A DNA stretch of 64,000 nucleotides from contig CAYOXX010000004.1 of NCBI GenBank assembly GCA_964408025.1, positions 4,148 through 68,147 on the forward strand, in the 5' to 3' direction. Made by a program: the position numbers and the translations under genes. This stretch comes from an uncultured Acidobacteriota bacterium (GTDB lineage: Bacteria; Acidobacteriota; DATKUA01). Below, piece by piece: positions 6,127 to 55,925 of this stretch. Under the pieces are notes generated by a model that was not told where the DNA came from, ran no database searches, and saw only the letters and a list, made by a program, of their open reading frames with translations. Positions within the stretch are counted from its first letter, which is position 1; each line of letters begins with the position of its first letter.

Positions 6127-6130
6127 ATCA

Positions 6131-7114
6131 GTGGCCGGGAAAGCCGAAACCGTCTTGATCACCGGCATCTCCGGTTTCGTCGGCTCCCACCTGTGCGAAG
6201 AGTTCCTGCGCCGAGGCCTGAAGGTCAAGGGGCTGATCCCCGAGGGGGAGGACATCTCCAACCTCGCGGCCGCGGAGTCTGAGATCCGCCTTCTCCAGGG
6301 CGACCTTCTGGATCCGGCTGGTCTCGAGCGGATCGTGGAGGAGGCCGGAGCCGATCTCATAGTCCACCTGGCCGCCGAGAGCTCGCCCGCCAGGAGTTAT
6401 TTGGATCCGGTAATCTCGTTTGAGGTCAACACTCTGGGGACGCTCCACCTCCTCGAGGCCATCCGGAAAGCGAAGCGGCCACGACGCTTCCTACTCTTCA
6501 CATCGGCCGAGGTCTACGGGGCCGCGGACCCCGCGGCGATGCCGCTGGCCGAGTCGGCGCCGCTGAGGCCGCTCAACCCCTACGCGGCCAGCAAGGCGGC
6601 GTGCCATTACCTCGGCAAGCAGTATGCTATGCACCATGACCTGCCGCTTGTTGAGGTGCGCCCCTTCAACATGATTGGGCCGCGCCAGGGCCGCGGCTTC
6701 GTACTGCCCGATTTCGCCTCCCAGGTGGCTGCGATCGTCTCCGGCCGCGCGGAGCCTCGCATTCATGTCGGCCGCCTCAGCGACCGGCGCGACTTCCTCG
6801 ACGTCCGCGACGCCGTTCGCGCAATCGCCGAACTGGCCGAGCGTGGAAGCGATGGAGAGGTCTACCACGTCTGCTCCGGCGTGGCTACGCCGGTACGACG
6901 CCTGCTCGACCTGCTGCTGGAGGCGGCCGGCGTAGAGATCGAGGTGGTGCGCGACCCGGCGCGGCTGCGCCCGACGGCGACGCCGATACTGCTAGGTTCC
7001 AACACAAAGCTGACCGAACAAACCGGCTGGGGGCCGACGATTACCCTGGAAGACACTGTCAGGGACGCCCTCGAATACTGGCTTGGGAAACCCTCTGCAG
7101 GTGACAACAATTAG
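6131..7114 (+). CDS. NAD-dependent epimerase/dehydratase (GDP-sugar 4,6-dehydratase/reductase-like SDR)
   Basis: It has a GTG start, a Rossmann motif (VLITGISGFVGSHL) and the catalytic YAASK motif. It starts 5 bp after the amidohydrolase stop. Confidence 0.65.
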   Translation: MAGKAETVLITGISGFVGSHLCEEFLRRGLKVKGLIPEGEDISNLAAAESEIRLLQGDLLDPAGLERIVEEAGADLIVHLAAESSPARSYLDPVISFEVNTLGTLHLLEAIRKAKRPRRFLLFTSAEVYGAADPAAMPLAESAPLRPLNPYAASKAACHYLGKQYAMHHDLPLVEVRPFNMIGPRQGRGFVLPDFASQVAAIVSGRAEPRIHVGRLSDRRDFLDVRDAVRAIAELAERGSDGEVYHVCSGVATPVRRLLDLLLEAAGVEIEVVRDPARLRPTATPILLGSNTKLTEQTGWGPTITLEDTVRDALEYWLGKPSAGDNN

Positions 7115-7243
7115 AGATCGAGTCTTAATATCGAACTAATATGTTGTTTAATGCGTCTTATTTAATCGGCTTGTAAAATGCCGGTGGCAACGGAGAGAAA
7201 GCAAACTGAAGCGTATCACTTAAAACAGCTGAGGACCTGTCCC

Positions 7244-8026
7244 ATGAACAGAATTCCGAATACGGCGTTGGCATTAGCCGCGCTCGCGGCGGCTACCGCG
7301 CTGCCGTTCGCCTCGGCCCAGCAGGAGCCGACGGCGCTGGAGATCATCCAGCGCATCGAGGACCTGATGCGCAGCGACCGCTCATACGCCGAGCTGACGA
7401 TGGAGATCATCACTCCTGACTGGCAGCGGACGGTCACCATGCGCAGCTACGACGACCGCGAGGGCGAGCGCAGCTTCATCCACATCCTCAGCCCCAGGCG
7501 CGACGAGAACACCACCTTCCTGCGCGTCGAGTTCAACCTCTGGATGTACCTGCCGCGCGCCGAGCGGACGATCCGCATCCCACCATCGATGATGCTCAAC
7601 AGCTGGATGGGAAGCGACTTCACCAACGACGACCTGGTCAGGGAAAGCTCGTACATCGATGACTACGACCACGAGCTTACCGGCATCGAGGAGCTCGAGG
7701 AGCTGGACGCCATCCCCTGCTACCACATCGTTATGCGCCCGAAGCCCGACGCGCCGGTCACCTGGGGCTGGGTCGAGGTTTGGATAAGCGTCGAGCCGCT
7801 GCTGCCGGTGCTCTACCGCTACTACAACCAGCGCGGCGAGCTGCGTAAAGAGATGATCATGAGCGAAATCGGCGAGATGGACGGCCACCTTCTGCCCACC
7901 GTATGGACCATGCGGACGATGGACAAGCCGGGCCATAGCACCGTCATCCGGCTCGAGAGCATGGACTTCGACGCCGACATTCCCGACCGGGTGTTCACGC
8001 GCCAGCACCTGCGCAACCCGCGATAG
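7244..8026 (+). CDS. LolA-like outer-membrane lipoprotein-sorting family periplasmic protein
   Basis: A signal peptide (ALALAALAAATALPFASAQ) is followed by a LolA-like fold signature (ITPDWQRTVTMRSYDD...FLRVEFNLWMYLP). It is the first gene of a four-gene co-directional cluster. Confidence 0.55.
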   Translation: MNRIPNTALALAALAAATALPFASAQQEPTALEIIQRIEDLMRSDRSYAELTMEIITPDWQRTVTMRSYDDREGERSFIHILSPRRDENTTFLRVEFNLWMYLPRAERTIRIPPSMMLNSWMGSDFTNDDLVRESSYIDDYDHELTGIEELEELDAIPCYHIVMRPKPDAPVTWGWVEVWISVEPLLPVLYRYYNQRGELRKEMIMSEIGEMDGHLLPTVWTMRTMDKPGHSTVIRLESMDFDADIPDRVFTRQHLRNPR

Positions 8027-8035
8027 GAGGAAACG

Positions 8036-9292
8036 ATGCGTATTTTCCTTGCCATCGCCTGGCGAAACGTGATGCGCAACAAAAAGCGCTCCTTCATCAC
8101 CATCTTCGCCATCGCCTTCGGCCTCATCTTCCTGATCTTCATGTGGTCGATCATCGACGGCGTCTACCCGGTGATGATCGACAACATGACCGGCCTGTTC
8201 ATGGGCCACATGGAAGTGAGCACCCCGGAATTTGTCGATCGGCCGGCGCTGGAGAACGCGATCCGGGACGGCGACCCGGTGATCGCCGCGGTGCGGGACC
8301 ACCCGAACGTGGAAGCCTACTCGCCCCGGATGCGCTTGTTCGGCCTGCTCAGCTATGCCGAGAACAGCCAGGGCGGCGTCGTCATCGGCATCGACCCGGA
8401 GCTGGAGCGCGAACTCGGGCGCCTTGATGATGACGAGTTCATCATCGAGGGCCGCTTCATCACCTCCGACGACGTGCGGGGCGCCGTCATCGGCGCCACG
8501 CTGGCCAAGAACCTCGACGCCAGACTGGGCGAGCGTATCTTCTTCCTCACCCAAGGTCCGCACCAGGAGCTGGCATACACCAACCTCAACGTCATCGGAA
8601 TCCTGAAATCCCACGTCCCCGAGATCGACGGCTCGATGGTCTTCGTACGCCGGGCTGACCTGACCGACGCCGATGTGCTGGACATGCCGGGGGCGGTCAC
8701 CGACGTCGCCATCCGCCTGCGCGACCAAAACCTGCTGGAAGAAACCAAGGCCGAACTGCAGTCGGCGCTGGAGGGGCACGACGAGCAGAAGCTGGTACGC
8801 ACGTGGAAGGAGATCGTCCCCTGGATCGAGCAGGCGCTGGCGATGGACGAGGCTTTCTTCTACTTCATCGTTCTAATCATGTTCACCGTCGTGGTCGCCG
8901 GCATCCTCAACACCGTTCTCATGTCGGTGATGGAGCGCACGAGGGAGTTCGGCATCATGCGCGCCCTGGGCACCAAGGGATGGCAGATCGCAACCGTAGT
9001 CAGTCTTGAATCGGTGATGCTCGGCGTCATCGGGCTGGTGATCGGGGCCACCTGCGGCATCGTCCTCACGCTGATCCTCGGCCAGACGGGACTCGACCTC
9101 TACAGCGGTATCGACGAGTCATTCATGGGAGAGTTCTACTTCTTCGAGACGAGAATCTACCCGCTTCTCAACCTCGACCACTTCATCACCACCTGCGTCG
9201 CCGTGATGGTCATGATTGTCCTGGTCTCCCTCTACCCCGCGCGCAAGGCGGCAAAACTCGAACCGGTAGTAGCTATCAAGGCCCTGGGGTGA
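8036..9292 (+). CDS. ABC transporter permease, FtsX/MacB-LolCE-like with large periplasmic domain
   Basis: It has an AGGAGG RBS and an N-terminal TM helix. A roughly 200-aa periplasmic domain is followed by three C-terminal TM helices (FtsX fold). Confidence 0.7.
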
Positions 9293-9296
9293 CGCG

Positions 9297-9977
9297 ATGA
9301 TCGTAAAGACGGAAGAACTCAAGAAGGTTTTCTCGAGCGACCACGTCGAGCACCCCGCACTGCGCGGCGTCGACGTCCAGATTGACGAAGGCGAGTTCGT
9401 GGTGGTCGCCGGACCCTCCGGCTCCGGCAAGACGACGCTGCTTAACATGATCGGCACACTCGACTCGCCGACCGAGGGGAAGGTGTTCTTCAAGGACCGC
9501 GACGTCGGCGCCATGTCGGTAGGCGAAAGGACGGAGCTGCGACTACACAAAATCGGCTTCGTCTTCCAAGCATACAACCTGATCAACGTGCTGACCGCGG
9601 CCGAGAACGTCGAATACGTGCTCCTGCTCCAGGGCCTGGCCGGCGAGCAGCGCCGGCAACGCGCCCACGAACTGCTCGAGGCCGTGGGCCTCGAGGGCCT
9701 CGAGAACCGCCGCCCGGAGCAGCTCAGCGGCGGCGAGCAGCAGCGTGTGGCCGTCGCCAGATCGCTGGCCTCGGAGCCGGAGTTGGTGCTGGCCGACGAG
9801 CCGACGGCCAACCTCGATCAGGCCACCGGTAAAGAGCTGATCGAGCTGATGCTCGAGCTCAACCGCGAGCGCGGCATCACATTCGTCATCTCCTCGCACG
9901 ACCGCATGGTGATCGAGCACGCCCGCCGGCTGCTGCGCCTCCTCGACGGTAGAATCGTCGCCGATGAAAAGCCGTAA
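9297..9977 (+). CDS. ABC transporter ATP-binding protein (LolD/MacB-type)
   Basis: It carries Walker A (GPSGSGKTT), the signature motif ([15 protein letters not shown]) and Walker B ([12 protein letters not shown]). Confidence 0.85.
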
Positions 9978-11112
9978 GATCAGCGCAGCCGCAACCGCAT
10001 TCAGCATCTTGCTGCTGCTGTGCGGAATCCTCGCCACACCCGCTGCGGCGCAGGAGTGGGACCTGAGCGGCTACCTGAAGACGCTCTTCATTGGAAGCCG
10101 CACCTTCTTCGACGAGGATTTCTCCCTCGCCACGCACCGCCTGCGCACGCAGCTAGTTTTCAGACCCATCAGCGCGGTAGAAATCCTGGCGGCTCTGGAC
10201 AACCAGCTTCGCTGGGGCGGCTACCTCGGCACGGAGCAGCACGCCCTCGCCCGGCCGCTCGAGGAGCGCTACTACGTCGACATGACCCTCACGCCCTACG
10301 ACAACACCGCGGCCCAGTGGCGCGCCGAGTTCTACAGGCTCTATCTGCGCGCCAGCGGCGAGGCGGCCGACCTTTGCATCGGCCGCCAGAGGATCGCCTG
10401 GGGCACGGGGCGGCTCTGGAATCCGACCGACCTCTTCAACCCGGTGAGCCCGCTGGCGATCGAGCCGGCCGAGAAGCGCGGCGCCGACGCGGTGGCGGTG
10501 GCCCTGCGGCCTTCTGCAGACGTGCGCCTCGAGCTGGCGGCAGCGGTGGGAGCGGACAGGGACGACGTCCGCTGGGGCGCCCGCGGCGGCACCACCGTCG
10601 GCAGCTACGACGTCTCGCTGATGGCCGGACGCTTCCGCGACAGCGACGTCATCGGCCTCGACTTCTCCGGCTACCTCGGCGACGCCGGCTTCCGCGGCGA
10701 GTTCACCCACACCTGGGATCCCGAGCGCCGCTACCTGCGCGGCGTCCTCAGCTTCGAGTATACGTTTCCCCCAGGCATAGACCTGCTGTGCGAGTACCTC
10801 TACAACGGCGGCAACATCGGCGAGATCACTCCGGAGGCGCTCGACAGCCTCGCCATCTTCGACGCCATCACCACCCTCAACCGCCACTTCCTGGCGGCGC
10901 GCGTCGGCGGATCCGCCTCCCCGCTTCTCACCGTCGGCCTGATGGGCATCGTCGAGCTTGAGGACGGCGGACTCTTCCTATCCCCCACCCTAACCTACTC
11001 ATGGAAGCAGGACCTCGACGTCACCATCGGCGCCCAGCTCTTCTTCGGCGACAGCGGCGATTTCGCGCTCGGCAACCACGCGGTCGTTCTGGCAGCGGAG
11101 TGGTATTTCTGA
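9964..11112 (+). CDS. outer-membrane beta-barrel protein (porin-like), fourth gene of the Lol-like/ABC cluster
   Basis: It has a signal peptide ending AAAQE, alternating-polarity beta-strands and a C-terminal aromatic residue (EWYF). It overlaps the ATPase gene by 14 bp. Confidence 0.5.
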   Translation: MKSRKISAAATAFSILLLLCGILATPAAAQEWDLSGYLKTLFIGSRTFFDEDFSLATHRLRTQLVFRPISAVEILAALDNQLRWGGYLGTEQHALARPLEERYYVDMTLTPYDNTAAQWRAEFYRLYLRASGEAADLCIGRQRIAWGTGRLWNPTDLFNPVSPLAIEPAEKRGADAVAVALRPSADVRLELAAAVGADRDDVRWGARGGTTVGSYDVSLMAGRFRDSDVIGLDFSGYLGDAGFRGEFTHTWDPERRYLRGVLSFEYTFPPGIDLLCEYLYNGGNIGEITPEALDSLAIFDAITTLNRHFLAARVGGSASPLLTVGLMGIVELEDGGLFLSPTLTYSWKQDLDVTIGAQLFFGDSGDFALGNHAVVLAAEWYF

Positions 11113-11141
11113 ATCCGGGGCGAGACGGGACGAATGGCGCT

Positions 11142-12026
11142 TTATCCACTCAGCCGGGTAGTGATCCGATCCCCTCGCTCGGCGTCCAGAGTATCCGCGG
11201 CGGAGCCGCCGCGCACGGCCAGCTCCAGGTAACCGCCGCTGCTAAAGAGTAGGAACGGCACCTCGCGCGGGCCGGCGGCGTAAAAATCAGCGAAATCCTT
11301 GACCGACTCTCCGGCGATAGTCGCCGCCATAATTTCCGGCTTCAGGCCGGCAGCGGCGAGGTGCTCGGCGCGGATGTTGGTGATCAGGTTGCCGAAGCGG
11401 TCGACGTGGATGATGGCGCCGCGAACCTCCCTCTCGGCGACAATCACCTCAGGGAGGTCCAGCTCGACCGGCTTTTCAATCGGGGGGCCGACCTCATCGA
11501 GTGGCATACCCGAAGCCAGTGCCGCGGCTGTAGGAGCGAAGATATCGCGGCCGTGGAAGGTGGCGCTGACCGGAAGGCGAAGCAGATCTTCGGCCGCGAT
11601 CCGACGTGCGCTCCATTTTTCTGTTTCGCGCAGGATGTGGGTGAAGACGCCGTTGTCGGGGCCGACGAAAAACTGACCCGCGGCGGCCAGAGCCATCGGC
11701 AGGCGCTCCGAACCGACACCCGGATCGACGACGGCCAGGTGGACCGTCCCGGCTGGGAAATCCCGCCAGCAGCCGGCCAGCAGGTAGGCGGCCTTGGCGA
11801 TGTCGCGGGGCAGAACGTCGTGGCTGATGTCTACAAGGACGGCTTCCGGGAATCGGGTAAGGATAACTCCTTTCATCGCCGCGACGTAGTGATCGCGGGT
11901 GCCGAAGTCGCTCAGCAGCGTTACTATTGAGCTCACAGTTCCCACCGAGAAAATCTGACAACGGAAGTATATCTCATCGAAGCCGGCCGCATAAATGTAG
12001 AGCCCGCTCGCCACGGGCTCATTCAA
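11142..12026 (-). CDS. SAM hydroxide adenosyltransferase (DUF62; fluorinase/chlorinase-family SAM-cleaving enzyme)
   Basis: Family signatures are SIVTLLSDFGTRDHYVAAMKGV, VDPGVGS and HVDRFGNLITNI. A GTG at 11936 (..GTVSSIVTLL) is a plausible alternative start. Confidence 0.7.
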   Translation of the reverse strand: MNEPVASGLYIYAAGFDEIYFRCQIFSVGTVSSIVTLLSDFGTRDHYVAAMKGVILTRFPEAVLVDISHDVLPRDIAKAAYLLAGCWRDFPAGTVHLAVVDPGVGSERLPMALAAAGQFFVGPDNGVFTHILRETEKWSARRIAAEDLLRLPVSATFHGRDIFAPTAAALASGMPLDEVGPPIEKPVELDLPEVIVAEREVRGAIIHVDRFGNLITNIRAEHLAAAGLKPEIMAATIAGESVKDFADFYAAGPREVPFLLFSSGGYLELAVRGGSAADTLDAERGDRITTRLSG

Positions 12027-12045
12027 AACAGAGAGTAATTAATCC

Positions 12046-13683
12046 CTAATGCCTGACCAGTGCTCCGACGCCGCCCTCGGAACGCGTCTCGATGACGACA
12101 TTATTGCTATCCAGCATCGTGCCGGTAGCCCTGTCGTAATCTACGAGGGCTCTCTGGTAGCGTGCCAGGGCCAGTATGACGTTGTAGCGGGCGGTTGCCA
12201 GGCGGTTCTGATACTCGAGCACCTGGAAGTTGGTGCTGCTGCCGACCGCGAACTTCCGCTGCTCCGCTTCGAGCTGCCTCTCGGCATACACGAGCGCGCG
12301 GCGCCGCGCTTCGAGCTGGGTGATGCTGATCTCCAGCTCGCGTATAGCGCTGCGCACTTCGACGGCGATGTCGTAACGGGTCTGCTCGATGCGCAACGCG
12401 TTCTGCCGCCGCTGGACCTGGTTGACCATCATCGAGGAGCGGGCAGTGCTGTTACCGAAGATGTAAGTGAAATTGGCGCCGATGGTCCAGTCGTGGTTCG
12501 TGCCGTCTAAGACGTCGCGGAGCGTGGAGACGAAGCTCAGCGGCAGGCCGGGAGGCGGCTCGGGAGCGAATAACGGATTGGGGATGAAGTTGCCGCCGAA
12601 GCTGAACAGGGCGACATCCGCGGTGAGGTTGAGAGAGGGGAGCAGCTGGTTGCGGGCGTAGGAGATCGAGACCTCGTTGTTCTCGATCTGCAGCTCGAGA
12701 CGCCGCATCTCGGGACGGTTCTCCAACGCGGTCTCCAAGCTCTCGCCGAAGTCGACATCGAGCTCTTCCGGCTCCTCCAGGGAGTCGGTGGGAACAATTC
12801 TGACAGCCCAGTCTTCCATGACGATCGCCTGCTTGAGGCGGTCCTCGGCGCGCTGCAGGTTGGCCTGAGCGTCGACCAGGTCGGCCTCCGCGCTGGCCAC
12901 TCTCTCCTCGGCGGAGACGATCTCGATTGGCGGCAGTGTGCCGACGTTCACCTTCACTCTGTTGATCTCGAGCTGCTCCCGCGCCAGAGCCAGCGCGTCC
13001 TCGGCTACCTCGAGGGCGTCGTAGAAGCTTACCAGATCCCAATAGCGGGTCATCAGGTCCACCAGTGTGGCTACCACCTGGTTCTCGAAGTCCGCTTCGC
13101 TGATATCGACGTTGTTGCTGTTGATGATGATCTGCCGCTCAGTCGCCAACTTGCCGAAGTCGCGCAGGATCGGCTGCGAAACGCCGATCGACCAGGAGTC
13201 GTTGAACATGGGATTGATGGAGCTGGTGATCGAATTGGAGCCGGAGCGGCGCATGTAGAGCGATGTGCTGACGTCGGCGCCGGTGAACAGCCGCCGCGAG
13301 AGCCGCATGATGATGTCCTGATAGTGGGTTTCGCTGCCTCTGAACGAGGAGAACGAGCGCTCGGCGTGGCGGTTGAAGCCGAAGTCGGCGAAGAACGTGT
13401 AGTCGTAGACGGCGTTCGCCCCGATCAGGTTGCCGTAGGCGCTCTCGTTGTCCAGGCCGCGAATCTGGATGTTGAAGTTGCGCTGCAGCGCCAGCGAGAC
13501 CGCCTCCCGCAGGCTGAGCTCCATCGTCCGCCGCTCAACCTCCTGGGCGCGCAGCGGCGCCGTCAGCAGCAGGGCGAGGAAAACGGCCAAGGCCAGGGCG
13601 AGCAGCAGCCGGTAATCCTGGATCGGCAGTGTGGCCGCCGCGGTGCGGCGGTCACTTGTGCGTTCCGGGGAGTGCGTCCACAT
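12046..13683 (-). CDS. TolC-family outer-membrane efflux protein
   Basis: A signal peptide is followed by two outer-membrane-efflux-protein repeats with coiled-coil segments (LSLREAVSLALQRNFNIQI...; ...ARYNVILALARYQRALVDYDRATG). Confidence 0.75.
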   Translation of the reverse strand: MWTHSPERTSDRRTAAATLPIQDYRLLLALALAVFLALLLTAPLRAQEVERRTMELSLREAVSLALQRNFNIQIRGLDNESAYGNLIGANAVYDYTFFADFGFNRHAERSFSSFRGSETHYQDIIMRLSRRLFTGADVSTSLYMRRSGSNSITSSINPMFNDSWSIGVSQPILRDFGKLATERQIIINSNNVDISEADFENQVVATLVDLMTRYWDLVSFYDALEVAEDALALAREQLEINRVKVNVGTLPPIEIVSAEERVASAEADLVDAQANLQRAEDRLKQAIVMEDWAVRIVPTDSLEEPEELDVDFGESLETALENRPEMRRLELQIENNEVSISYARNQLLPSLNLTADVALFSFGGNFIPNPLFAPEPPPGLPLSFVSTLRDVLDGTNHDWTIGANFTYIFGNSTARSSMMVNQVQRRQNALRIEQTRYDIAVEVRSAIRELEISITQLEARRRALVYAERQLEAEQRKFAVGSSTNFQVLEYQNRLATARYNVILALARYQRALVDYDRATGTMLDSNNVVIETRSEGGVGALVRH

Positions 13684-45682: not shown

Positions 45683-45995
45683 TTTCACCACAGAGACCAC
45701 AGAGGAAGCGATTGTAGGGGAATCCTTAAGGGCTCCCGAACGAGGTGACGGCAGGTGTGTATTACCCGCGGGGGGCCTAAAGGCTCCCCCCTACGCCGAA
45801 GCGAGGCGCTAGGCACACGCCTGTAGGGGAGTCCTGAACTTGTCCGCAGCGGCGATGCCCCCCTTAAACACCCGGGGCGGCATAAAGGCCGCCCCTACAA
45901 TCGGACGAGATAACCTATGAAATCATTGTAGGGGGGTAGGAACTTGTCCGCCGCGGCGGATGCCCCCCTCCTAGTTAGCGGTCAATATCCGGCGT
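45683..45995. repeat. cluster of REP-like hairpin repeats (TGTAGGGG...CCCCTACA type and GGGGnGnC-TAAAG-GnCnCCCC-TACA type)
   Basis: The unit caccacagagaccacagaggaagcgattgtaggggaatccttaagggctccc occurs here and at 49985-50190. Several hairpins carry a TAAAG loop and a CTAC(A/G) tail. Confidence 0.6.
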
Positions 45996-46009: not shown

Positions 46010-47587
46010 CTAGTAGCCGGGCAGCTTGGAGAAGTAGAAGCTGTGGTACTGTCCACTGCTCCCCTCGAGCCTGAAGAGGTTCAGGCTGCGCAGGGCGGGA
46101 CCGAAAGCGCGCAGCAGCGGCCCGCCGCTCCATATTTTCCCCTTGTAGTTTGACCCCGCCAGGCGGTCGACCTGGCCGCTGCCGGGGTCGAAGGAGTAGC
46201 AGTCGAGCTGCAGCTCCTGCCAGGTGCGGGAGCCGTGAAGCTCTCTATAATACCCGGAACGCGAGTGGGTGATGAGGACGCGGCCGCCGTAGGTAAGCAC
46301 AACATAGTTGGAGAAAAAACTGAAGGTTTCATAGGATAACCGGTCAGGAGTGCCCCAATACGGCCTGAACCAGGGGGCTGCCTTGAACTTGGCACGCTTC
46401 CCCATCCTCCCGCCTTCGGCGGAGATCTGCTGATAGAAGTAAGTGTAACTCTTTGAGTTGCTTCCTATATATGGGCCTTCAGCGGGCGCGGCATGGGTGT
46501 AAAGCAGGTAGAGAGGCTCGCCCCCCTGCGTCGGGCTCGGGGGCACGCTAACGCGCGGCAGGAACACCGGGCTGACGAATGTTGGGTAGTGGATATTCGT
46601 CCTGTCGTTGGCGATCTTGCGCATCCTCATATCGAAGGAGTTTCCACCTTGGTCCGGTGTCACCCGCAGGACGTGGACCTGGTAGCCGATCTGGTCCACA
46701 TAGTCTCGCGGGTCGTAGGGCATCCGCTTCAGCAGCGTTACGACACCGGGAACCATCCAGCTCTCGCCGTTCCAGGCCGGCCTGTAGGGGCGGAAGAGGC
46801 GGTAATTGCCGCCCTTCGGCAGCCTCACGTCGGCAGCGCCCGGCTCCTGCAGCACGCCGGTCGAGGAGACCTCCATGAAGTAGGCCTCCCCCGCACGTCT
46901 CCCATAGAGGTCGTCGGAACTCTCATTTATGTTGGCGCCGGCGAACACGCCGACCACGTCGCCGCGCACTCCCGCGGTGAGCCAGAGCATTTGGTAGTAC
47001 ATGTCCTCCGGAGCGTTTATCTCCAGCAGTGTCTCGAAGTCGGTGGTCAGCTTGCCGGATGCGTTGAACCTTGCCGCTGCGAAGCGGCCCACGTCGCTTA
47101 CGCCCTCGGGGTAGTAGGCGATGAGCAGGAGCCCGTGATCGGGCGAGGGCGCCTGTTCGGCGAACCAGCAGGCGGCGGCCTGGCTTATCCTGCCTCCGGT
47201 CATCGTCAGCACGTCGGTCGCGGTGCCGACTTTGCCCTTGCTGTTGAGTGTGAAGGAGCGGAGCGTGTAGATGTCGAGCGACGGTGGCACATCCGTCTCC
47301 TCCATGTTCAAGGCGAAGACGACGCTGGAGTCGGCGCCCACCACTGCCCAGGCCAGCAACCGCACGTGGTGCTCGAAGCCCGTCACCTTGACCTTCTTGA
47401 GCTTATACTTCGCCGTCCCCGGCGCGGCCACGTCGTCCGCCGCCGCCGCACCCGCCAGCAGCGCCAGCGCTGCCATTACGCCCACAAAACTGCGGATAAG
47501 CTTGCTTTTCATGGCGAATTCCCCACTAGCCTGATAAAACTCGTTGAATATAGTCAGCAATGTAGCCGTTGTTAGACGCGATGGCAA
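46010..47587 (-). CDS. hypothetical secreted protein, tandem paralog A
   Basis: It has a signal peptide (LALLAGAAAADD). It is about 75% identical to the next gene along its full length, and no domain is recognised. Confidence 0.55.
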   Translation of the reverse strand: MPSRLTTATLLTIFNEFYQASGEFAMKSKLIRSFVGVMAALALLAGAAAADDVAAPGTAKYKLKKVKVTGFEHHVRLLAWAVVGADSSVVFALNMEETDVPPSLDIYTLRSFTLNSKGKVGTATDVLTMTGGRISQAAACWFAEQAPSPDHGLLLIAYYPEGVSDVGRFAAARFNASGKLTTDFETLLEINAPEDMYYQMLWLTAGVRGDVVGVFAGANINESSDDLYGRRAGEAYFMEVSSTGVLQEPGAADVRLPKGGNYRLFRPYRPAWNGESWMVPGVVTLLKRMPYDPRDYVDQIGYQVHVLRVTPDQGGNSFDMRMRKIANDRTNIHYPTFVSPVFLPRVSVPPSPTQGGEPLYLLYTHAAPAEGPYIGSNSKSYTYFYQQISAEGGRMGKRAKFKAAPWFRPYWGTPDRLSYETFSFFSNYVVLTYGGRVLITHSRSGYYRELHGSRTWQELQLDCYSFDPGSGQVDRLAGSNYKGKIWSGGPLLRAFGPALRSLNLFRLEGSSGQYHSFYFSKLPGY

Positions 47588-47639: not shown

Positions 47640-47880
47640 AGTGTTGTGAGTCAAGCAAGCTCTACCTGTAGGGGAGTCCTTAAGGGCTCCCGTCTCCAAG
47701 TCATTGTAAGGGAGTCCTGCACTTGTCCCACAAAGCTTCAGCGTAGTCGGAGGCGGATGGTCCCCTTGAACACTCCGGGCTGCATAAAGGCCGCCCCTAC
47801 AATCTGACGAGATAACCTGTAAAGTCATTGTGAGGGGGGTCGTATATGCCCCCCTCTGAGTCAGCTGGTCAACATCCGGC
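47640..47880. repeat. REP-like hairpin repeat cluster between the paralog genes
   Basis: Elements here are tgtaggggagtccttaagggctcccg and ggctgcataaaggccgcccctaca, near-identical to those at 45822-45900. Confidence 0.6.
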
Positions 47881-47896: not shown

Positions 47897-49435
47897 CTAG
47901 TAGACGGGCAACTTGGAGAAATAGAAGCTGTGGTATTGTCCATTGCTCCCCTCGAGCCTGAAGAGGCTAAGGCTGCGCAGGAGGTAAGGGTAGGGGTAGC
48001 CGAAGGGGCGGATCAGCGGCCCGCCGCTCCACACCTTTCCCTTGTAGTTTGCCCCCGCCAGGCTATTGACCTGGCCGGTGCTGAGATTGAAGGAGTAGCA
48101 GTCCAGCTGTAGCTCCTGCCAGGTGCGGGATCCGCCGCTGAGCTCGGTATAGTAAGCGGAGCGCGAGTGGGTGAGGAGGGCGCAGCCGCAGTAGGTAAGC
48201 ACAAGATAACTGGAGAAAAAACTGAAGGTTTCTCTGGATTTGCGGTTGGGAGTGCCTAAATACGGCCTGAACCAGGGGGTTGCGTTGAACTTACTACGCT
48301 CTCCGATCCTTTCGCCTTCGGCGGAGATATGCTGATAGAAGTAGGTGTATCTCTTTGAGTGGGGACCTACAAGCGGGCCGTTTGCGGGTGCGGCATGGGT
48401 ATAAAGCAGGTTGAGCGGCTCGCCTTCCTGCACCGGGCTCTCGGTCATGGGAGTGTGCGGCAGGTACGGCAGGAACACCAGGCTGACGTATGTCGGCCAG
48501 GGGACATTCGTCCTGTCGCTGGCGATCTTGTGCATCTCCATATCGAAGGAGTCCCCGGCCTGGTTCGGTGTCACCCTTAGGACGTGGATCTGGTAGCCGA
48601 TCTCGTCCACCCAGTCTGGGCGTTCCCAGGGCACCCGCTTCAGCAGCGTTACGACACCGGGAACCATCCAGCTCTCGCCGTTCCAGGCCGGTCCGTAGGG
48701 GCGGAAGAGGCGGAAATCGCCGTCCCTCGGCAGCCTCACGTCGGCAACGCCCGGCGTCCGCAGCACGCCGGTCGAGGATAACTCCATGAAGTAGGCCTCA
48801 CTTGCGCGACTGCCCCACAAGTCGTCGTAGTCCATCTCTAATATATCGGCGCCGGCGAACACGCCGACCACGTCACCGCGCACTCCCGCGCTGAGCCAGA
48901 GGTCTTGAAAGACCATGTCCTCCGGAGCGCTTATCTCCAGCAGTGTCTCGAAGTCGGTGGTCAGCTCGCCGGATGCGTCGAAGCTTGCCGCCGCGAAGCG
49001 GCCCACGCTTCTTTCATCGTCTAAGCCTTCGGGGTGGTAGGCTATGAGCAGGAGCCCGTGCGCGGTCGAGGGCGTCGACTGGTCGTCGAACCAGAAGGCG
49101 GCTGCCTGGCATACCCTGCCTCCGTCCATCATCAGCAGGTCGTTCGAGGTGCCGACCTTGCCCCTGCTGTTGAGGGTGAAGGAGCGGAACGTGACGATGT
49201 CGGGCGCCGTCGACCTCAACGGCTTCTCAGTGTCCAAGGCGAAGACAACGCTGGAGTCGCCCACACCTGCCCAGGCCAGCAATTGCACCTGGTGCTCGAA
49301 GCCCGTAACCTTGACCTTCTTGATCCTATAGTTCGCAGTCCCTGATGCGGTCACGTCGTCCGCCGCCGCCGCACCAGCCAGCAGCGTCAACGCTGTTAAT
49401 AAGCCAATAAAACTGCGGATAAATTTACTTTTCAT
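47897..49435 (-). CDS. hypothetical secreted protein, tandem paralog B
   Basis: Same family as 46010-47587. The 5' and 3' ends are about 90% identical at the nucleotide level. Confidence 0.55.
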   Translation of the reverse strand: MKSKFIRSFIGLLTALTLLAGAAAADDVTASGTANYRIKKVKVTGFEHQVQLLAWAGVGDSSVVFALDTEKPLRSTAPDIVTFRSFTLNSRGKVGTSNDLLMMDGGRVCQAAAFWFDDQSTPSTAHGLLLIAYHPEGLDDERSVGRFAAASFDASGELTTDFETLLEISAPEDMVFQDLWLSAGVRGDVVGVFAGADILEMDYDDLWGSRASEAYFMELSSTGVLRTPGVADVRLPRDGDFRLFRPYGPAWNGESWMVPGVVTLLKRVPWERPDWVDEIGYQIHVLRVTPNQAGDSFDMEMHKIASDRTNVPWPTYVSLVFLPYLPHTPMTESPVQEGEPLNLLYTHAAPANGPLVGPHSKRYTYFYQHISAEGERIGERSKFNATPWFRPYLGTPNRKSRETFSFFSSYLVLTYCGCALLTHSRSAYYTELSGGSRTWQELQLDCYSFNLSTGQVNSLAGANYKGKVWSGGPLIRPFGYPYPYLLRSLSLFRLEGSNGQYHSFYFSKLPVY

Positions 49436-49974
49436 TGCGGAATCCCTCTCTAGCCAAATAAAAAATCGTTAAACCAGCAACCTGGCGCCTGTTAGACTTG
49501 AATTCAAGCGTGAGCACGCGCCTCTACGTATTTGCAGATAAATCCATAGTCGCCCCCCCCAGAGGAAATCCAATTCATCCCCTCCAAGGAATTGGTAGAA
49601 AAGCAATTAAAAGCCTAATGATCAAGGCAAAGAGTCCGAGCCCAGGTTATTAGGCTCTATGCAACCATATTGCTTTTCAACCAGACTAAAACAGTAAGTA
49701 GCTTATTAGATATTAGGGAGGCTGGAAGTAACGGTGGTTACACCATGATTGATACTAATCTCTTGGCTATCCTGCGACACCGCATATTTATGTGGCCATG
49801 CGCGGGATTCATTTCAGGTCGTCCGCGAGGACGGCAGCCTGTAATGGGTGGGATCCTGAGGGGGGCCTTTACTTGTCCACCGTCGCTGAAGCTTTGGCGG
49901 ACTTGTCCGCCGTAGCTTTAGCGGAGGCGGATGCCCCCCTCTCTTCGCTGGCAGTCAATATCGGCAGAGGGAAG

Positions 49975-50260
49975 TAACCCACAGCTCCCGTTTTCACCAC
50001 AGAGACCTCAGAGACCACAGAGGAAGCGATTGTAGGGGAGTCCTGAATTTATCCGCCTCTGGCGGAGGGCTCCCGTGCCATTGTAGGGGAGTCCTTAAGG
50101 GCTCCCGTTTTCACCACAGAGACTCGAAGACGCGCCGTGGTGGGCACAGAGACCACAGAGGAAGCGATTGTAGGGGAGTCCTTTAGGGCTCCCGTTTGAA
50201 AATGAATCACTGTTTCGGGGGCGCTAAAGCACCCCCCTACACCAAGATTAGCGCATTATA
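49975..50260. repeat. REP-like hairpin repeat cluster (three copies of the caccacagag...tgtaggggagtcc unit)
   Basis: It is directly repeated within the cluster and shared with 45683-45735. Confidence 0.6.
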
Positions 50261-50564
50261 AAAGCTTGTGTTGGCTTCTTAATCCGCCGTCCTCACCGCA
50301 CACCTCGGCGCGCCCTGGCGGGGCGTATCGACGCTACCCCTGGTCGGCGTCCGCCGACCTCGGGTAGTCCTTCCTCGACCTGAACTCGATGATCCCCACC
50401 GGGCACACCGCCGCTCAACGCCCATCCCGCACGCACTTCTCCGTATCTACATAAAAACCAATCGCTGCTCCCTCCAGAGAAAATACAATTCAGCCCTTCC
50501 AAGGGATCGCCAGAATTGCACTCAAAAGGTGCAAATGCACGGTGGAGCGTAGACATGTAGCGGC

Positions 50565-50748
50565 AACTGTAACGACGACCTGTAGCGGCGGCTGTAGCGG
50601 CGACTTTTAAGTCGCCTACTCCCGCCGCCGGCGGGAGCAATTCATCGCGCAGTGGCGCGATTAGTCGAGCTGAAGCTCGACGCTACCTGCCGCTCCTTTC
50701 CTGTAGCGGACACCTTTAGGTGGCCTGGTCGGCCTAAAGGCCGACAAA
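50565..50748. repeat. composite REP array (ctgtagcggcggctgtagcgg / gcgattagtcgagct..agctcgacgctac / cacctttaggtg / gtcggcctaaaggccgac)
   Basis: It is an array of short perfect hairpins. The same blocks recur in a different order at 55745-55925, and the last block recurs again at 61338-61361. Confidence 0.65.
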
Positions 50749-50751
50749 TAA

Positions 50752-51042
50752 TTATGCAAACACTCCGTCCAGATTCTTAGCGGACTTCAGCCTTTCATAA
50801 GTCGTGTAGCGCAAGTTCTGCGGAGCCCTGACTTTCCCGCCTTTGATCATTTTAATCGGCTTTATCTCCTTGGCCGGCTCGGCGAAGTAGATAATCACCT
50901 TGCCCGAGTCTTTGTATGGCTCGATGCTCTTTACGGGAGCGACATGAGTGATCGCCGAAATCGGGGCTACCTGGTACGAGGCTATATACTTGATCTGTTC
51001 GATCATACTGGCGTGAATGCGTACCTTGTACCAGCAACACAA
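50752..51042 (-). CDS. hypothetical small protein encoded in AT-rich DNA
   Basis: It is AT-rich, about 85-96 aa (MIEQIKYIASYQ...YTTYERLKSAKNLDGVFA), and I recognise no motif. Confidence 0.35.
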   Translation of the reverse strand: MCCWYKVRIHASMIEQIKYIASYQVAPISAITHVAPVKSIEPYKDSGKVIIYFAEPAKEIKPIKMIKGGKVRAPQNLRYTTYERLKSAKNLDGVFA

Positions 51043-51086
51043 GTCATGGGTCTACATTGATCATTCTCTATCGACATTTTCTATAA

Positions 51087-51284
51087 TTACTTTTTGCTTT
51101 TCATTTTCTTGCACTCCTCACACAACGGTAAATTCCCCGTGCCAGTTTTTCTATATTTTCTTTCTATGTTATTTCCTTTTGTGCAGTCACCATAAATATG
51201 ATGCACAGTACCGTGTTTAGAGTAATAAGAATTTACTTTTCTTGGCATTTCACACTCCTTGATATCAATCAACAACAGATTCAA
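51087..51284 (-). CDS. hypothetical small Cys-containing (zinc-ribbon-like) protein
   Basis: It reads MPRKVNSYYSKHGTVHHIYGDCTKGNN...LPLCEECKK, with paired Cys/His. It is AT-rich. Confidence 0.3.
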   Translation of the reverse strand: MNLLLIDIKECEMPRKVNSYYSKHGTVHHIYGDCTKGNNIERKYRKTGTGNLPLCEECKKMKSKK

Positions 51285-51308
51285 CAGTTATACTACCCAC
51301 TATTTAGC

Positions 51309-51572
51309 GGTGCCCGGGGATGAGGTCCCTATTCATAGTAATACCTCATTTTGGCTTGTGCCGCCTATGCGGACGGACTCTCGTACCGTCTTGTCGAGTA
51401 TGACCTCTGACAGGTACTGTCATTGGTCCTCGACGTGGCGGCTTCTCAGAACATCTGTTCTTCGATTTTGCCATAAAATAGCACCTCCTTTCTAGGTGAT
51501 AGCTTCACCGTGCCGTTTCAGTGTTACTATCCCGAGTCAATGGAGGTTCCCCGGGCACCTAAACTCATTCTA
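51309..51572. repeat. element bounded by a perfect 12-bp inverted repeat (GGTGCCCGGGGA ... TCCCCGGGCACC), 240 bp apart
   Basis: The arms lie at 51309-51320 and 51561-51572. No ORF spans the interior, which is mixed-GC. Confidence 0.5.
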
Positions 51573-51657
51573 ATGATTTTTCTTACACTTGTCAAGCCGA
51601 AGTATTCCAAGGTGACTCTTTAATGATAGGATATTGAAAAGTTATTTTAAATCACTA

Positions 51658-51756
51658 CTATGATACGCTCTCCTCGACTATCGCTATTTCTTCATCTGTC
51701 AGACCGTAAAGCTCGTAGACGAGCTGGTCGATCTGGCGGTATCTTGTTTTTCCCAT
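51658..51756 (-). pseudogene. vestigial copy of a Type IIG RM enzyme C-terminal tail (MGKTRYRQIDQLVYELYGLTDEEIAIVEESVS*)
   Basis: It has host-like GC. It shares the 17-nt identical run ctcgtctacgagcttta and the motif LVYELYG(L/M)TDEEI with the 3' end of the RM gene at 52648. Confidence 0.55.
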
Positions 51757-51803
51757 TTAATTATATCATCTTCTTTACAAATTATCTAGCCATATAAGAT
51801 TAT

Positions 51804-52613
51804 TCATATGAGTTTTAATTCATGCAATTTTTCTGTTATTTCATCTCTATAATTTCTCGGAACTATCAAGCCATAACCAACAACCTCTCCATTCTCTCCT
51901 TTTCTAAAATTATCGAAATACTTTCGAAAATACTTATTAACATTTTCATCCCTTTCACCTGTAAAACACCACTTAAAAAACTCTCCCGTTGAGCCTACTA
52001 AACAATCGTTAATCTGAAGTGCAAAAGAAACCCTTGTAGAAGTACAAACCAAACAAGGACATGCACAAAACCTTCTAAGTGGTTTTACAATATTTTGTTC
52101 AAATCTATACCCTTCATAATATGCTTTTTGATATACATTCAAATATTCCATTATTTTAATTTTTGAATCAGGCAACCAATCAAATACAGTGTCCAGATAT
52201 GGATAATCATCTTTTTCTTTCAATAAATTATAATTCTGCTCCAAATCAAATGATAGTCTCTGCAATATATTTGTAAATGACCATTTCCAACTTTCCGCAC
52301 GATATTCTTTAGACCCTTTCCATACAAATGACATTATAAGTGTCATATTTAAATCTTTTGGCAATTTAAAGATGTCAGATCTTAACTCTGGTATTTTTTC
52401 CCTTAAATCTCTAAGTTTTTCACATTCCTTATCCATATAATTATATTTAATAACATCAGATAAGTCAAGCTGATATTTTTTCTTTATTCTTGCTACAGAT
52501 AAATCTAATTTACGTAACATTGACCTTGGTATATAATATCCCCCAACAAGCATTCCATAATCTAAGTCATATTCATCGAGAAAACAAATAATGCTCTCAG
52601 AAAGCGTACTCAT
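51804..52613 (-). CDS. hypothetical protein (269 aa) encoded in AT-rich DNA immediately downstream of the RM gene
   Basis: It has about 30% GC, no recognisable motif, and starts 35 bp after the RM stop on the same strand. Confidence 0.5.
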   Translation of the reverse strand: MSTLSESIICFLDEYDLDYGMLVGGYYIPRSMLRKLDLSVARIKKKYQLDLSDVIKYNYMDKECEKLRDLREKIPELRSDIFKLPKDLNMTLIMSFVWKGSKEYRAESWKWSFTNILQRLSFDLEQNYNLLKEKDDYPYLDTVFDWLPDSKIKIMEYLNVYQKAYYEGYRFEQNIVKPLRRFCACPCLVCTSTRVSFALQINDCLVGSTGEFFKWCFTGERDENVNKYFRKYFDNFRKGENGEVVGYGLIVPRNYRDEITEKLHELKLI

Positions 52614-52647
52614 AAATCACCTATCACATTGAATATAAAAACGTACT

Positions 52648-55638
52648 TTATTCTGTATTATTCTCAACAATTTTAATTTCCTCATCCGTCATACCATAAA
52701 GCTCGTAGACGAGTTTGTCAAGATGGCGATCAGTGGCCTCGATCTGGCGCTGGAGTCGTGTTATTTCGTTTGGATCTTTTGACATCTCAATTCTCATATT
52801 TTTGTCTATAAGAATCTCTACTAATTCAACTATTCTATCATATATTATCTTATTATCTACCTTGTCCACGGTGGGGATAGGCAGCGATTTTAATTGACTT
52901 ATTTTTATTTGTGGAAAGGCATCATGGAACTCATCATAATATGCTCGAATAAAAAAGGAAATAAGACGGCTACCGAGTATCCCAGCAATAAATTGTGCTT
53001 TGAATTTTCCATTTTTAGGAATAGTTATATAGACTTGTTGATCCGCTACTGAATTAGTTTTTTCAATAGTAACAACTAGACGATCACCAAGAATCTTGCG
53101 TGAATAAACCCTTTCCCCTTGGAAAAATTCAGGTTTTCTTGGCTCTGCAAGCCATAGACCATATCTAATATATTCAGTAGGTTTGGGAGGTGTAAATCTG
53201 CGAAGGTCACGGCCGTAAATAAATGCTCTATAACCTTCTCCTCCCAATTTGCTATGATATGGCTTTTCATCTAAGTCTCTTTTGATTTGAGGCCCTTTAC
53301 CAAACGCCGTTTGTCCATATCCTCCTAAGCGGTATGAGTGTACTCCACGAGTAACATAAGCAAATCTCTGTAATTCCGGATAACTATCCTTTAATCTTTC
53401 TACCAAAATAGCGCTAGTACTATCTAAAACTGTTGAAATTGGTCTGGAACCATCAAGATATAGTTTGACCTCATGTGTGGCAATCTCAATAATATTTCCA
53501 TTACACATATTCTTAATTGAAAATATATCCGATGGCTTAGGGCGTTTTTGTAAAGTGTAAATAATTGTATCAACCGTCAGACCTGAAAAAACATTAGCCC
53601 CTGGAGTCGTTATGCACAAATCATTACTATAACTAAGAATGAAAGATCTCGTGCTATATGAATATGTATTAGAGAGCCATACGTTAGGTACTATTAAGCC
53701 TACCCGTCCGAAATTGCGACTAAGCATGTGGGCTTTCTCCATAAATATAGAAAACATGTCAAGTTGATAAGGTGAACTCTTATAAATTCTACCAAGATAA
53801 ATCTTAGACTCTTCGGTGATATTTAGATCCTTCCAATCTCTCCCAAAAACATACGGCGGATTCCCTATAACTACGTCAAACCCTCCCTTCTTCATGATTT
53901 CGGGGAATTCTGTGTCCCAGTCAAATGGGTTGATGCGGCGGAGCTGCTCGTCGTCGAACAGGACTCCCTGGTGGTGGTCGAAGAAGTCGGTGCCGATGAG
54001 CGAGTTTCCGCACTTGATGTTGCCGCCCAGGTCGGGCAGGGCGCGCTCACGGAAGAGTTTTAGCTGCTGCTCGAGCGATTCCTTGCTCTCGCCCTCGAGG
54101 GCCTTGAGCAGCAGGTTGAGCTTGGTGACCTCGACGGCCTGGGGGTCGATGTCGACGCCGTGGATGCAGTCGAGCAGTAGTCGCTTTTTTTCGGCCGTGG
54201 AGAGGAACCACTCGCCTCCCCTGCCGCGGAAAACCTTGTTCTTGTGCTTTTCGGGATTGTTGGCGGCGTACCAGTCGCGGCAGTAGTCGAGCAGGTACTG
54301 GTAGGCGCCGATGAGGAAGGAGCCGGAACCGCATGCGGGGTCGAGTATCTTGAGCTTATGAACATGGCTCGCGGTCAGGGGTTTATTAGATTTCTTACCC
54401 TTGACGGCCGAGGTTGAACCTTCCACAAGCGGGCGGCCCGCCGCGGCGGGCTCGCCCCTACAGCCCTCGCACAGTTTGCCGACGGTGTTTTTGACGATGT
54501 AGTCGACGATGTAGGTGGGGGTGTAGTAGACGCCGCCGGCCTTGCGGACCTCCGGCTTCTCCTCGACCTTGGCGTGGTGTGCGGGCGTGAGGCGGATCAC
54601 CTTGCCGAGGAACTGCTCGTAGACGTGGCCGAGTATGTCGGCGCCGATCATCGAGAACTCGTAGGGCGACTCGGGGTAGTAGAGGCCCTTGAAGACGGTT
54701 TTGAGTGCGGCGTCGTCGATCTCGAGCTCGTGCGTTAGGCGGTCGGGCTCGGTGGCGGCGCCGCGGTCCTTCTCGAAGTGGAAGAGGCCGGAGTTGTAGC
54801 GCTCCTCGGCGCGGTCGAAGAGCTCGAGCAGGCGCCCGTAGGCGTTGGTGCCGCTGCCCAGGGCCTCGAGGCGGCCGTAGCCCTCGATGCCGCGGTCCTC
54901 GCAGATGCGCAGGAAGATGATGCGGTCGATGGTGCGCTGGACTGCGAAGTTTAGCTCGTGGACGGAGAGGCGCGGGTTGCGCAGTGCGATGTTGCGGGCC
55001 AGCAGGTCGCGCCAGCACTCGATCTCCTTGAGGAACTCCTTATCGACCGGCGCGGTGCCGCGAATGCGCTTGGATTCGGCGTAGCGGTCGAAGCTGCCCT
55101 GCAGGACCGCCTCCTTGCCGAAGAGGCCGTGGATGTCGTCGAACTGCTCGGGGTACTGCTCGAAGCCGATGTACTGGACGCGGGCTGTCGAGACCTTGTC
55201 ACTCTCGTGCGGGCGCACGCGGCAGTCGTAGACGGCGAGCTCCTCGAAGTCGGTGAGGATAGAGAGTTTCAAGTTGGCGCTCCAGCCGTAGCGGCGGAGC
55301 TGGTAGGGCAGGTGCGGGTTGTCGCGGATGTTCAGCGCCGGCTTTTTTGCCTCGACGAAGAAGATCTTTTCGGAGCCGATGCGGAAGCAGTAGTCGGGAG
55401 CCTTGGTGCCGCCGGCGACCTTGATCGAGTCCTCGTGAATGACGTCTTTGTACTGCTCCGACGTGTGCGACTTGTTGTAGATGTCCCAGCCGAGGGCCTC
55501 GAAGAAGGGGTCGATGAACTCGACGCGCAGTTGCGCCTCATTGTAGGCCGGGCTCTTAAAACCCTTCAGCCCGCGCCGGAAGGCCTCTATTAATTCCTCG
55601 GTCCGGCGCAGGCCCTCGTCTTTCGGCACTTGGAACAT
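52648..55638 (-). CDS. Type IIG restriction-modification enzyme (fused PD-ExK endonuclease plus gamma-class N6-adenine DNA methyltransferase plus C-terminal TRD)
   Basis: A PD-(D/E)xK-like motif (PDYCFRIG...IFFVEAKKP) lies at aa 81-99. SAM motif I (ILDPACGSGSFL) is at aa 431-442 and catalytic motif IV (GNPPYV) at aa 592-597. A C-terminal region of about 400 aa follows, ending with the tail LVYELYGMTDEEI. The 996-aa size fits the MmeI-like class. Confidence 0.8.
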   Translation of the reverse strand: MFQVPKDEGLRRTEELIEAFRRGLKGFKSPAYNEAQLRVEFIDPFFEALGWDIYNKSHTSEQYKDVIHEDSIKVAGGTKAPDYCFRIGSEKIFFVEAKKPALNIRDNPHLPYQLRRYGWSANLKLSILTDFEELAVYDCRVRPHESDKVSTARVQYIGFEQYPEQFDDIHGLFGKEAVLQGSFDRYAESKRIRGTAPVDKEFLKEIECWRDLLARNIALRNPRLSVHELNFAVQRTIDRIIFLRICEDRGIEGYGRLEALGSGTNAYGRLLELFDRAEERYNSGLFHFEKDRGAATEPDRLTHELEIDDAALKTVFKGLYYPESPYEFSMIGADILGHVYEQFLGKVIRLTPAHHAKVEEKPEVRKAGGVYYTPTYIVDYIVKNTVGKLCEGCRGEPAAAGRPLVEGSTSAVKGKKSNKPLTASHVHKLKILDPACGSGSFLIGAYQYLLDYCRDWYAANNPEKHKNKVFRGRGGEWFLSTAEKKRLLLDCIHGVDIDPQAVEVTKLNLLLKALEGESKESLEQQLKLFRERALPDLGGNIKCGNSLIGTDFFDHHQGVLFDDEQLRRINPFDWDTEFPEIMKKGGFDVVIGNPPYVFGRDWKDLNITEESKIYLGRIYKSSPYQLDMFSIFMEKAHMLSRNFGRVGLIVPNVWLSNTYSYSTRSFILSYSNDLCITTPGANVFSGLTVDTIIYTLQKRPKPSDIFSIKNMCNGNIIEIATHEVKLYLDGSRPISTVLDSTSAILVERLKDSYPELQRFAYVTRGVHSYRLGGYGQTAFGKGPQIKRDLDEKPYHSKLGGEGYRAFIYGRDLRRFTPPKPTEYIRYGLWLAEPRKPEFFQGERVYSRKILGDRLVVTIEKTNSVADQQVYITIPKNGKFKAQFIAGILGSRLISFFIRAYYDEFHDAFPQIKISQLKSLPIPTVDKVDNKIIYDRIVELVEILIDKNMRIEMSKDPNEITRLQRQIEATDRHLDKLVYELYGMTDEEIKIVENNTE

Positions 55639-55744: not shown

Positions 55745-55925
55745 CGGCATGTAGAGGCCGTAGCGGCGGCTGTAGCGGAGATTGTAGCGGCCACCTTTAG
55801 GTGGCCTAGTCGGCCTAAAGGCCGACGCTACCGGCTGCATATTCCCGCCTGCGGCGGTAGCAACTCATCGAGCAGTTGCGCGATTAGTCGAGCTCCGCCT
55901 GAGGCGGATAAATTCAGCTCGACGC
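55745..55925. repeat. composite REP array homologous to 50565-50748
   Basis: It contains gtagcggcggctgtagcgg, cacctttaggtggcctagtcggcctaaaggccgacgctacc and gcgattagtcgagct...agctcgacgctac. Confidence 0.65.

Follow-up and report, generated by a model that had tools for sequence, protein, structure and literature searches.

The window analysed here, the whole 64-kb stretch of DNA, harbored on the minus strand a 269-aa open reading frame (ORF) lying downstream of, and co-directional with, a Type IIG restriction-modification (RM) gene (52648-55638, minus strand, 996 aa). The locus comprised the following features:

49791-49875, plus strand: DUF3800-VII RNA (Rfam RF02967, 48.1 bits versus a gathering score of 36.2, E 1.4e-7)
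50557-50745, plus strand: modular direct repeats, left copy, with 82-95% identity to the right copy
51658-51756, minus strand: relic ORF of 32 codons (MGKTRYRQIDQLVYELYGLTDEEIAIVEESVS, then stop), remnant of the C-terminal helix encoded by an older Type IIG allele
51804-52613, minus strand: DUF3800-like ORF with an ATG start, encoding a 269-aa divergent DUF3800-family protein with a predicted RNase H fold
52614-52647, minus strand: spacer of 34 nt from the Type IIG stop to the ORF start
52648-53899, minus strand: 3' portion of the Type IIG gene, from NPPY on and covering the TaqI_C-type target-recognition domain (TRD), with donor-like low GC
53900-55638, minus strand: 5' part of the Type IIG gene, residues 1 to about 580, nuclease N-terminus and methyltransferase up to NPPY
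55760-55894, plus strand: modular direct repeats, right copy, with the modules in a different order

The 269-aa ORF was markedly AT-rich (GC 0.30, GC3 0.23) compared with the rest of the window, which was mostly at GC 0.60-0.73. The probability of an open frame of 810 nt arising by chance at 30% GC was about 2e-10 (arithmetic from base frequencies), and an identical intact ORF occurred in contigs of several different samples. Full-length homologues (34-56% identity) and a confident AlphaFold model (pLDDT 90.6, pTM 0.90) indicated that it is a real protein gene, as the first-pass annotation had assumed. That annotation had also placed it co-directionally with the RM gene at a distance of 35 bp; the orientation stood, while the spacer measured 34 nt. 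Within this spacer, AGGTGA, a Shine-Dalgarno-like site, was located 4 nt before the ATG of the ORF and no terminator-like hairpin was found, so that the ORF and the Type IIG gene are probably co-transcribed. The cysteine-rich stretch CACPCLVC noticed earlier was present at residues 183-190, but its four cysteines were not conserved as a set, being replaced in several homologues. A zinc or other metal site at this position was therefore ruled out, and CACPCLVC is not considered a metal-binding motif.

The neighbouring gene was called as Type IIG by PADLOC (REase_MTase_IIG, E 5e-191) and encoded the Pfam domains Eco57I, MmeI_Mtase and N6_Mtase, a TaqI_C specificity domain and an HSDR_N-type N-terminus. 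This gene is a compositional chimera. In 30-codon windows, GC3 of the 5' part was host-like over residues 1-570 (mostly 0.8-1.0, with one window at 0.67), fell to 0.50 in the window containing GNPPY, and ranged from 0.14 to 0.53 (mostly 0.2-0.4) after about residue 590; overall GC of the 3' part was 0.24-0.48 at the same resolution. The compositional junction was found at about 53855-53930, and low GC3 ran on from the TRD through the DUF3800-like gene, in agreement with the low GC previously reported as common to the two. The drop of GC3 at NPPY indicates that the specificity half of this gene was replaced recently.

The relic ORF, starting 45 nt beyond the stop of the DUF3800-like gene, displayed 68% identity over 25 aa with the present Type IIG C-terminus. 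Its DNA formed an imperfect direct repeat of 66 nt (51673-51738 versus 52663-52728, 77%). Together, the chimeric Type IIG gene and the relic downstream indicate that the DUF3800-like gene arrived with the specificity cassette, which supports the earlier proposal that it was riding with this cassette. The simplest reading of the chimera and the relic would be one recent transfer from a low-GC donor. A low-GC fragment, consisting of the NPPY-to-end portion of a Type IIG gene followed by the DUF3800-like gene, would have taken the place of the resident specificity half. The left end of the fragment would lie in the conserved methyltransferase motif, and the last codons of the old gene would have stayed behind as the 32-codon relic. 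The allele before the swap would have possessed the same high-GC N-terminal half and ended in ...RQIDQLVYELYGLTDEEIAIVEESVS. The best matches to the new Type IIG half were 60-66% identical and came from Bacteroidota-type and other metagenome-assembled genomes (MAGs). The DUF3800-like ORF was absent from all three of the TRD-homologue loci inspected in this identity range, where other genes were found downstream. The donor itself is unsampled.

The modular direct repeats bracketed about 5.1 kb encompassing the small ORFs, the relic, the DUF3800-like gene and the Type IIG gene. They were built of GTAGCGG-type palindromic units, and each of the two modules tested (24- and 17-nt probes) occurred only twice in the window; these repeats may be REP-like, or they may mark the two ends of an inserted segment. 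The small ORFs, both on the minus strand and both devoid of family matches, encoded 65 aa (51087-51284; low-GC, lysine-rich, with a C...CxxC pattern) and 96 aa (50752-51042; 84 aa as called by JGI). REP-like intergenic repeats with a ATTGTAGGGGAGTCCT core were also observed in nine copies (45711-45901, 47665-47803 and 50009-50197). They followed each of two tandem paralogous genes on the minus strand (46010-47587, 525 aa, and 47897-49435, 512 aa), whose products displayed signal-peptide-like N-termini and had no Pfam family on record, and they adjoined the DUF3800-VII RNA.

DUF3800 is a widespread RNase H-fold family and, to our knowledge, a biochemical or genetic function is known for none of its proteins. 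Direct scans of the 269-aa protein against Pfam, NCBIfam, PADLOC and PHROGs returned nothing significant, and sub-threshold matches to Trans_coact (E 0.031), RecN (E 0.047) and phrog_254 (E 0.13) were set aside as chance. Taken alone, the protein did not match the Pfam DUF3800 model even at E<=10; phmmer against the PDB retrieved only designed helical proteins (E>0.4), and a profile search against PDB chains gave no matches. A single-sequence search of 5.8 billion proteins recovered seven relatives. The profile built from these first seven homologues recovered 19 proteins in 5.8 billion, one of them carrying a precomputed PF12686 assignment. The PF12686 model was reached at E<=10 by 13 of 17 close relatives (best 1.5e-7) and at E<=0.01 by 44 of 62 wider relatives (best 2.7e-14). 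As far as sequence is concerned, the putative membership of the protein in DUF3800 rests on this transitive profile evidence. At E<=0.001, 264 family representatives were obtained among 1.84 billion proteins. A single family match, in a Planctomycetaceae MAG, was detected in 185,579 GTDB species genomes, and no member was found in IMG/VR. The subfamily of the window protein, with the signature WKWxFxNILQR (residues 109-119), is rare, accounting for about 20 clusters in 5.8 billion proteins.

Two motifs define the DUF3800 family, DE in the N-terminal part and QxxD in the C-terminal part (PMC7736814). The window protein possesses both, as D13-E14 within a predicted strand (residues 8-16) and as Q200-D203 within a predicted helix (residues 197-218), so that the first-pass statement that no motif could be placed holds only for a reading made without tools. 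Q200 and D203 were invariant in 17 sequences, and D13, K44, K56, R119, D145, Q200 and D203 were at least 90% conserved over 62 sequences, while E14 fell below 90% in this wider set. The candidate acidic residues were D13, E14, D145 and D203. In the AlphaFold model, D13-E14 closed the first strand, D145 closed an inner strand, and Q200 and D203 were located on the long helix. This predicted placement of D13-E14, D145 and D203 on strands and helix is the layout of RNase H-type centres.

Fold searches of the model returned RNase H-like matches only. The best Foldseek match in BFVD was a siphovirus DUF3800 domain protein (A0A8S5M5R1, E 1.5e-8, probability 1.00, TM 0.60/0.66), the second match following at E 1.6e-2, and the best matches in the PDB were archaeal RNase HII and human RNase H2A (1eke_B, E 4.9e-4; 2dff and 3puf weaker), with weak TM values of 0.35-0.41. 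Published modelling likewise gives DUF3800 an RNase H fold (PMC7736814, PMC10910872). The fold matches, the conserved motifs and the transitive profiles together make the 269-aa protein a divergent member of DUF3800 (PF12686) with an RNase H-like fold, and not a member of the RNase H2 family; the gene can no longer be regarded as belonging to no family. Like DUF3800 proteins, it is about 270 aa long, carries the DE and QxxD motifs and has the predicted RNase H-like fold; it differs from typical members in being too divergent for the Pfam model and in belonging to the rare WKWxFxNILQR subfamily. With type 2 RNase H (RNase HII/H2A) it has in common the order Asp-Glu, Asp, Asp on equivalent predicted secondary-structure elements, whereas its identity to these enzymes was 9-12%, the TM values were those given above, and it displayed extra helical insertions. 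No RNase HII sequence match was found for it in Pfam or the PDB. At most, the protein works like an RNase H, without being a member of that family.

RM controller (C) proteins are helix-turn-helix (HTH) proteins of about 80-100 aa, usually encoded upstream of the restriction endonuclease gene, and type IV or modification-dependent nucleases carry PD-(D/E)xK, HNH, Mrr/McrBC or SRA-type domains. Both classes had been put forward for this gene and neither fits. The product is 269 aa long, is encoded downstream of the RM gene, matched no HTH family and has a predicted RNase H-like alpha/beta fold; no domain of the type IV kind was found in it with Pfam, NCBIfam and PADLOC at E<=1, and its fold matches were RNase H-like only. 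As for the abortive-infection factors also named then, an abortive-infection or defence-effector role is plausible for this protein, which is a candidate for it.

DUF3800 domains have been described in two immune contexts. In type VII retrons, DUF3800 is the effector domain, modelled on RNase H2 (Mestre et al. 2020, PMC7736814), and the retron type VII proteins have no conserved Q of the QxxD motif and have DEED (PMC7736814). The window protein belongs to the same superfamily but, unlike the retron proteins, it has retained Q200 and carries D in the third position. No reverse transcriptase was found among the called genes within 10 kb and no msr/msd was found; the Rfam matches of the window included no retron ncRNA. 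In class 2 CRISPR systems, TPR-DUF3800 proteins are accessories of Cas12a2/Cas12a3, with DUF3800 accessories in some V-A2 and type VI-F loci (PMC10910872, PMC12669027). There too an RNase H-fold DUF3800 domain is part of an immune locus, whereas the window protein lacks a TPR domain and no cas genes or CRISPR array were found nearby.

The neighbourhoods of the family members in the window and among its relatives, where L numbers denote metagenome loci, were distributed as follows:

Window: Type IIG gene directly beside the DUF3800-like gene
L090: family gene after hsdR-hsdM-hsdS (Type I)
L095: family gene after hsdM-hsdS (Type I), in a frameshifted copy
L087: family gene after a tyrosine integrase and an Alw26I-type IIS endonuclease
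L094: family gene after an unknown 271-aa ORF and a ResIII/Type III-like helicase
L083/L082: family gene between a trypsin-like protease and HmaC/HmaB
L093/L092: family gene before Shedu SduA (E 1.9e-158)
L086: family gene after an OLD-like TOPRIM protein
P0002: family gene after an unknown 214-aa ORF, with a MazE/PIN pair 2.2 kb off
P0008: family gene near a DUF87 ATPase and a large protein with an SspC-like N-terminus
P0003: solitary, between an alpha-2-macroglobulin gene and a tricorn-like gene
P0005: solitary, adjoining PhoU and NFACT genes
P0012: solitary, in a Planctomycetaceae MAG

In a hand tally made with no background control, 8 of the 13 loci whose flanks could be used, window included, had a defence gene directly adjoining the family member; by the same tally, again counting the window, an RM or methylase-based system occurred within about 1.5 kb in 6 of 13. 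The closest homologues (41-56% identity) stand alone, and three close ones (P0003, P0005 and P0012) had housekeeping neighbours and no defence gene in 10 kb. In P0002 and P0008 the defence context was weak or nearby. Relatives thus often adjoined restriction or other defence genes directly, which supports the first-pass annotation in this respect. The DUF3800-like gene is not, however, a conserved companion of this Type IIG/TRD lineage. In L083, a co-directional block (5205-12802) encoded the trypsin-like protease, the DUF3800-like protein, HmaC (DUF499), DUF7680 and HmaB (DUF1156 methylase). Its genes overlapped or were at most 34 nt apart, and the block is possibly an Hma-type system to which further components belong. 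The family copy in L095 (2174-2940) was split into two overlapping ORFs, as a frameshifted pseudogene or through an assembly error.

A functional partnership with RM systems, with the upstream Type IIG enzyme here and with Type I, IIS or Hma systems elsewhere, would fit part of this distribution. In that case, the substrates of the protein might be RNA-DNA hybrids or intermediates of cleavage; alternatively, restriction might trigger it as a second effector. The 34-nt gap, the Shine-Dalgarno-like site and the lack of a terminator suggest an operon in the window, two more copies directly follow a Type I hsdS gene, and 6 of 13 loci had an RM or methylase-based system close by. Such a partnership is nonetheless unlikely: the neighbouring systems are mechanistically unrelated (Type I, IIG, IIS, Hma, Shedu, OLD), the closest homologues stand alone, and the gene was absent from the three inspected TRD-homologue loci. 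The variety of neighbouring systems favors a resident of defence islands over a dedicated partner of the Type IIG enzyme, and the function of the DUF3800-like protein is probably independent of that enzyme.

In every high-GC host, the family gene was 9-23 GC points below its flanks (13-20 in most), forming low-GC islets, while distant relatives (26-31% identity) were found on low-GC contigs of matching composition. These two distributions argue for a low-GC origin and repeated import. No conserved sequence or ncRNA was obtained by blastn among the flanks of the homologues, and flanking direct repeats in 11 other loci were limited to short AT-rich chance matches. The gene could also be a selfish hitch-hiker that brings the host no benefit. 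It would spread by exploiting, or itself stimulating, recombination where defence genes end, and would be neutral or decaying in this genome. This appears improbable, although single-gene low-GC islets occurred in several high-GC genomes, a 66-nt duplicate of the Type IIG 3' end flanks the DUF3800-like gene, and one relative (L095) is split by a frameshift. The ORF of the window was intact and identical across contigs of several different samples, its motifs were conserved across 62 relatives, and the 11 other loci showed no comparable flanking repeats. The gene might also be a homing-type mobile nuclease gene whose target would be the conserved 3' end of restriction specificity genes (Type IIG TRD, Type I hsdS), and which would thereby drive the exchange of specificity cassettes. 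This could explain its position right after specificity genes in three independent loci, as well as its bracketing by a duplicated Type IIG C-terminal segment beside a freshly swapped TRD. As no flanking duplications were found in the 11 other loci, homing is considered very improbable.

The DUF3800-VII RNA was the only match in the Rfam scan of the 64-kb window. It was located 1.93 kb from the 3' end of the DUF3800-like ORF and convergent with it. This ORF is the only DUF3800-type gene of the window, which makes the co-occurrence striking, and its product was identified independently of the RNA match. The RNA was followed by GC-rich hairpins and repeat elements, with no gene downstream on its strand. 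Near DUF3800 genes, Weinberg et al. (2017) found 11 RNA motifs unrelated to one another, for which they could propose no function (PMC5737381). The protein and the RNA could thus form one module, either a ribonucleoprotein or an RNA-regulated toxin, as the sole Rfam match in 64 kb lies near the window's only DUF3800-type gene and 11 RNA motifs are on record with such genes. This is quite improbable given the distribution of both partners elsewhere. The Rfam scan of about 20 loci of this protein branch matched no RNA, and many genes of the branch were less than 60 nt from their neighbours, often leaving no room for one. Conversely, nine phage loci with strong DUF3800-VII RNAs (63-72 bits; L020, L022, L023, L027, L055, L066, L071, L074 and L077) were obtained from IMG/VR, and in the six distinct ones none of 76 ORFs matched PF12686. 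The window copy of the RNA was the weakest (48 versus 63-72 bits), lacked 4 nt of a helix, and lay outside the repeat-bracketed segment of about 5.1 kb that holds the gene. The RNA-less related loci, the DUF3800-less phage loci, the weak copy and its position outside the segment leave the link between RNA and ORF unconfirmed.

Among the phage loci, the RNA was found about 0.7-1.7 kb upstream of the large-terminase gene and co-oriented with it in L023 and L055, and near DNA-methylase genes in L020 and L066. A twister-sister ribozyme was observed about 1.4 kb from the RNA in L022 and L023. The region 49400-51800 of the window showed no similarity to phage loci with DUF3800-VII. A phage origin was set aside, as this region was unlike those loci and the family had no member in IMG/VR.

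Overall, we give slightly better than even chances to the product being a stand-alone defence-island nuclease of the RNase H-fold DUF3800 type, imported with the Type IIG specificity half from a low-GC donor. Such a protein would most likely be a metal-dependent nuclease acting on RNA-containing or hybrid nucleic acid and a self-contained, horizontally mobile immune effector. This putative role is drawn by analogy from type 2 RNase H, from retron type VII effectors and from the accessories of some class 2 CRISPR loci.

The locus provides an unusually clean snapshot of the replacement of a Type IIG specificity domain, with a breakpoint at NPPY, a donor composition that has not yet ameliorated and the old 3' end surviving as a relic. 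DUF3800 itself is an already known, uncharacterised family; the divergent subfamily member is new. The family recurs in immune contexts (type VII retrons, some class 2 CRISPR loci) and beside enigmatic structured RNAs, and the locus adds to it a rare, compact and stand-alone subfamily that is missed by the Pfam model and found repeatedly beside restriction, Hma, Shedu and OLD-type genes. This single-gene version of 270 aa is a convenient test case for the putative nuclease function of DUF3800.
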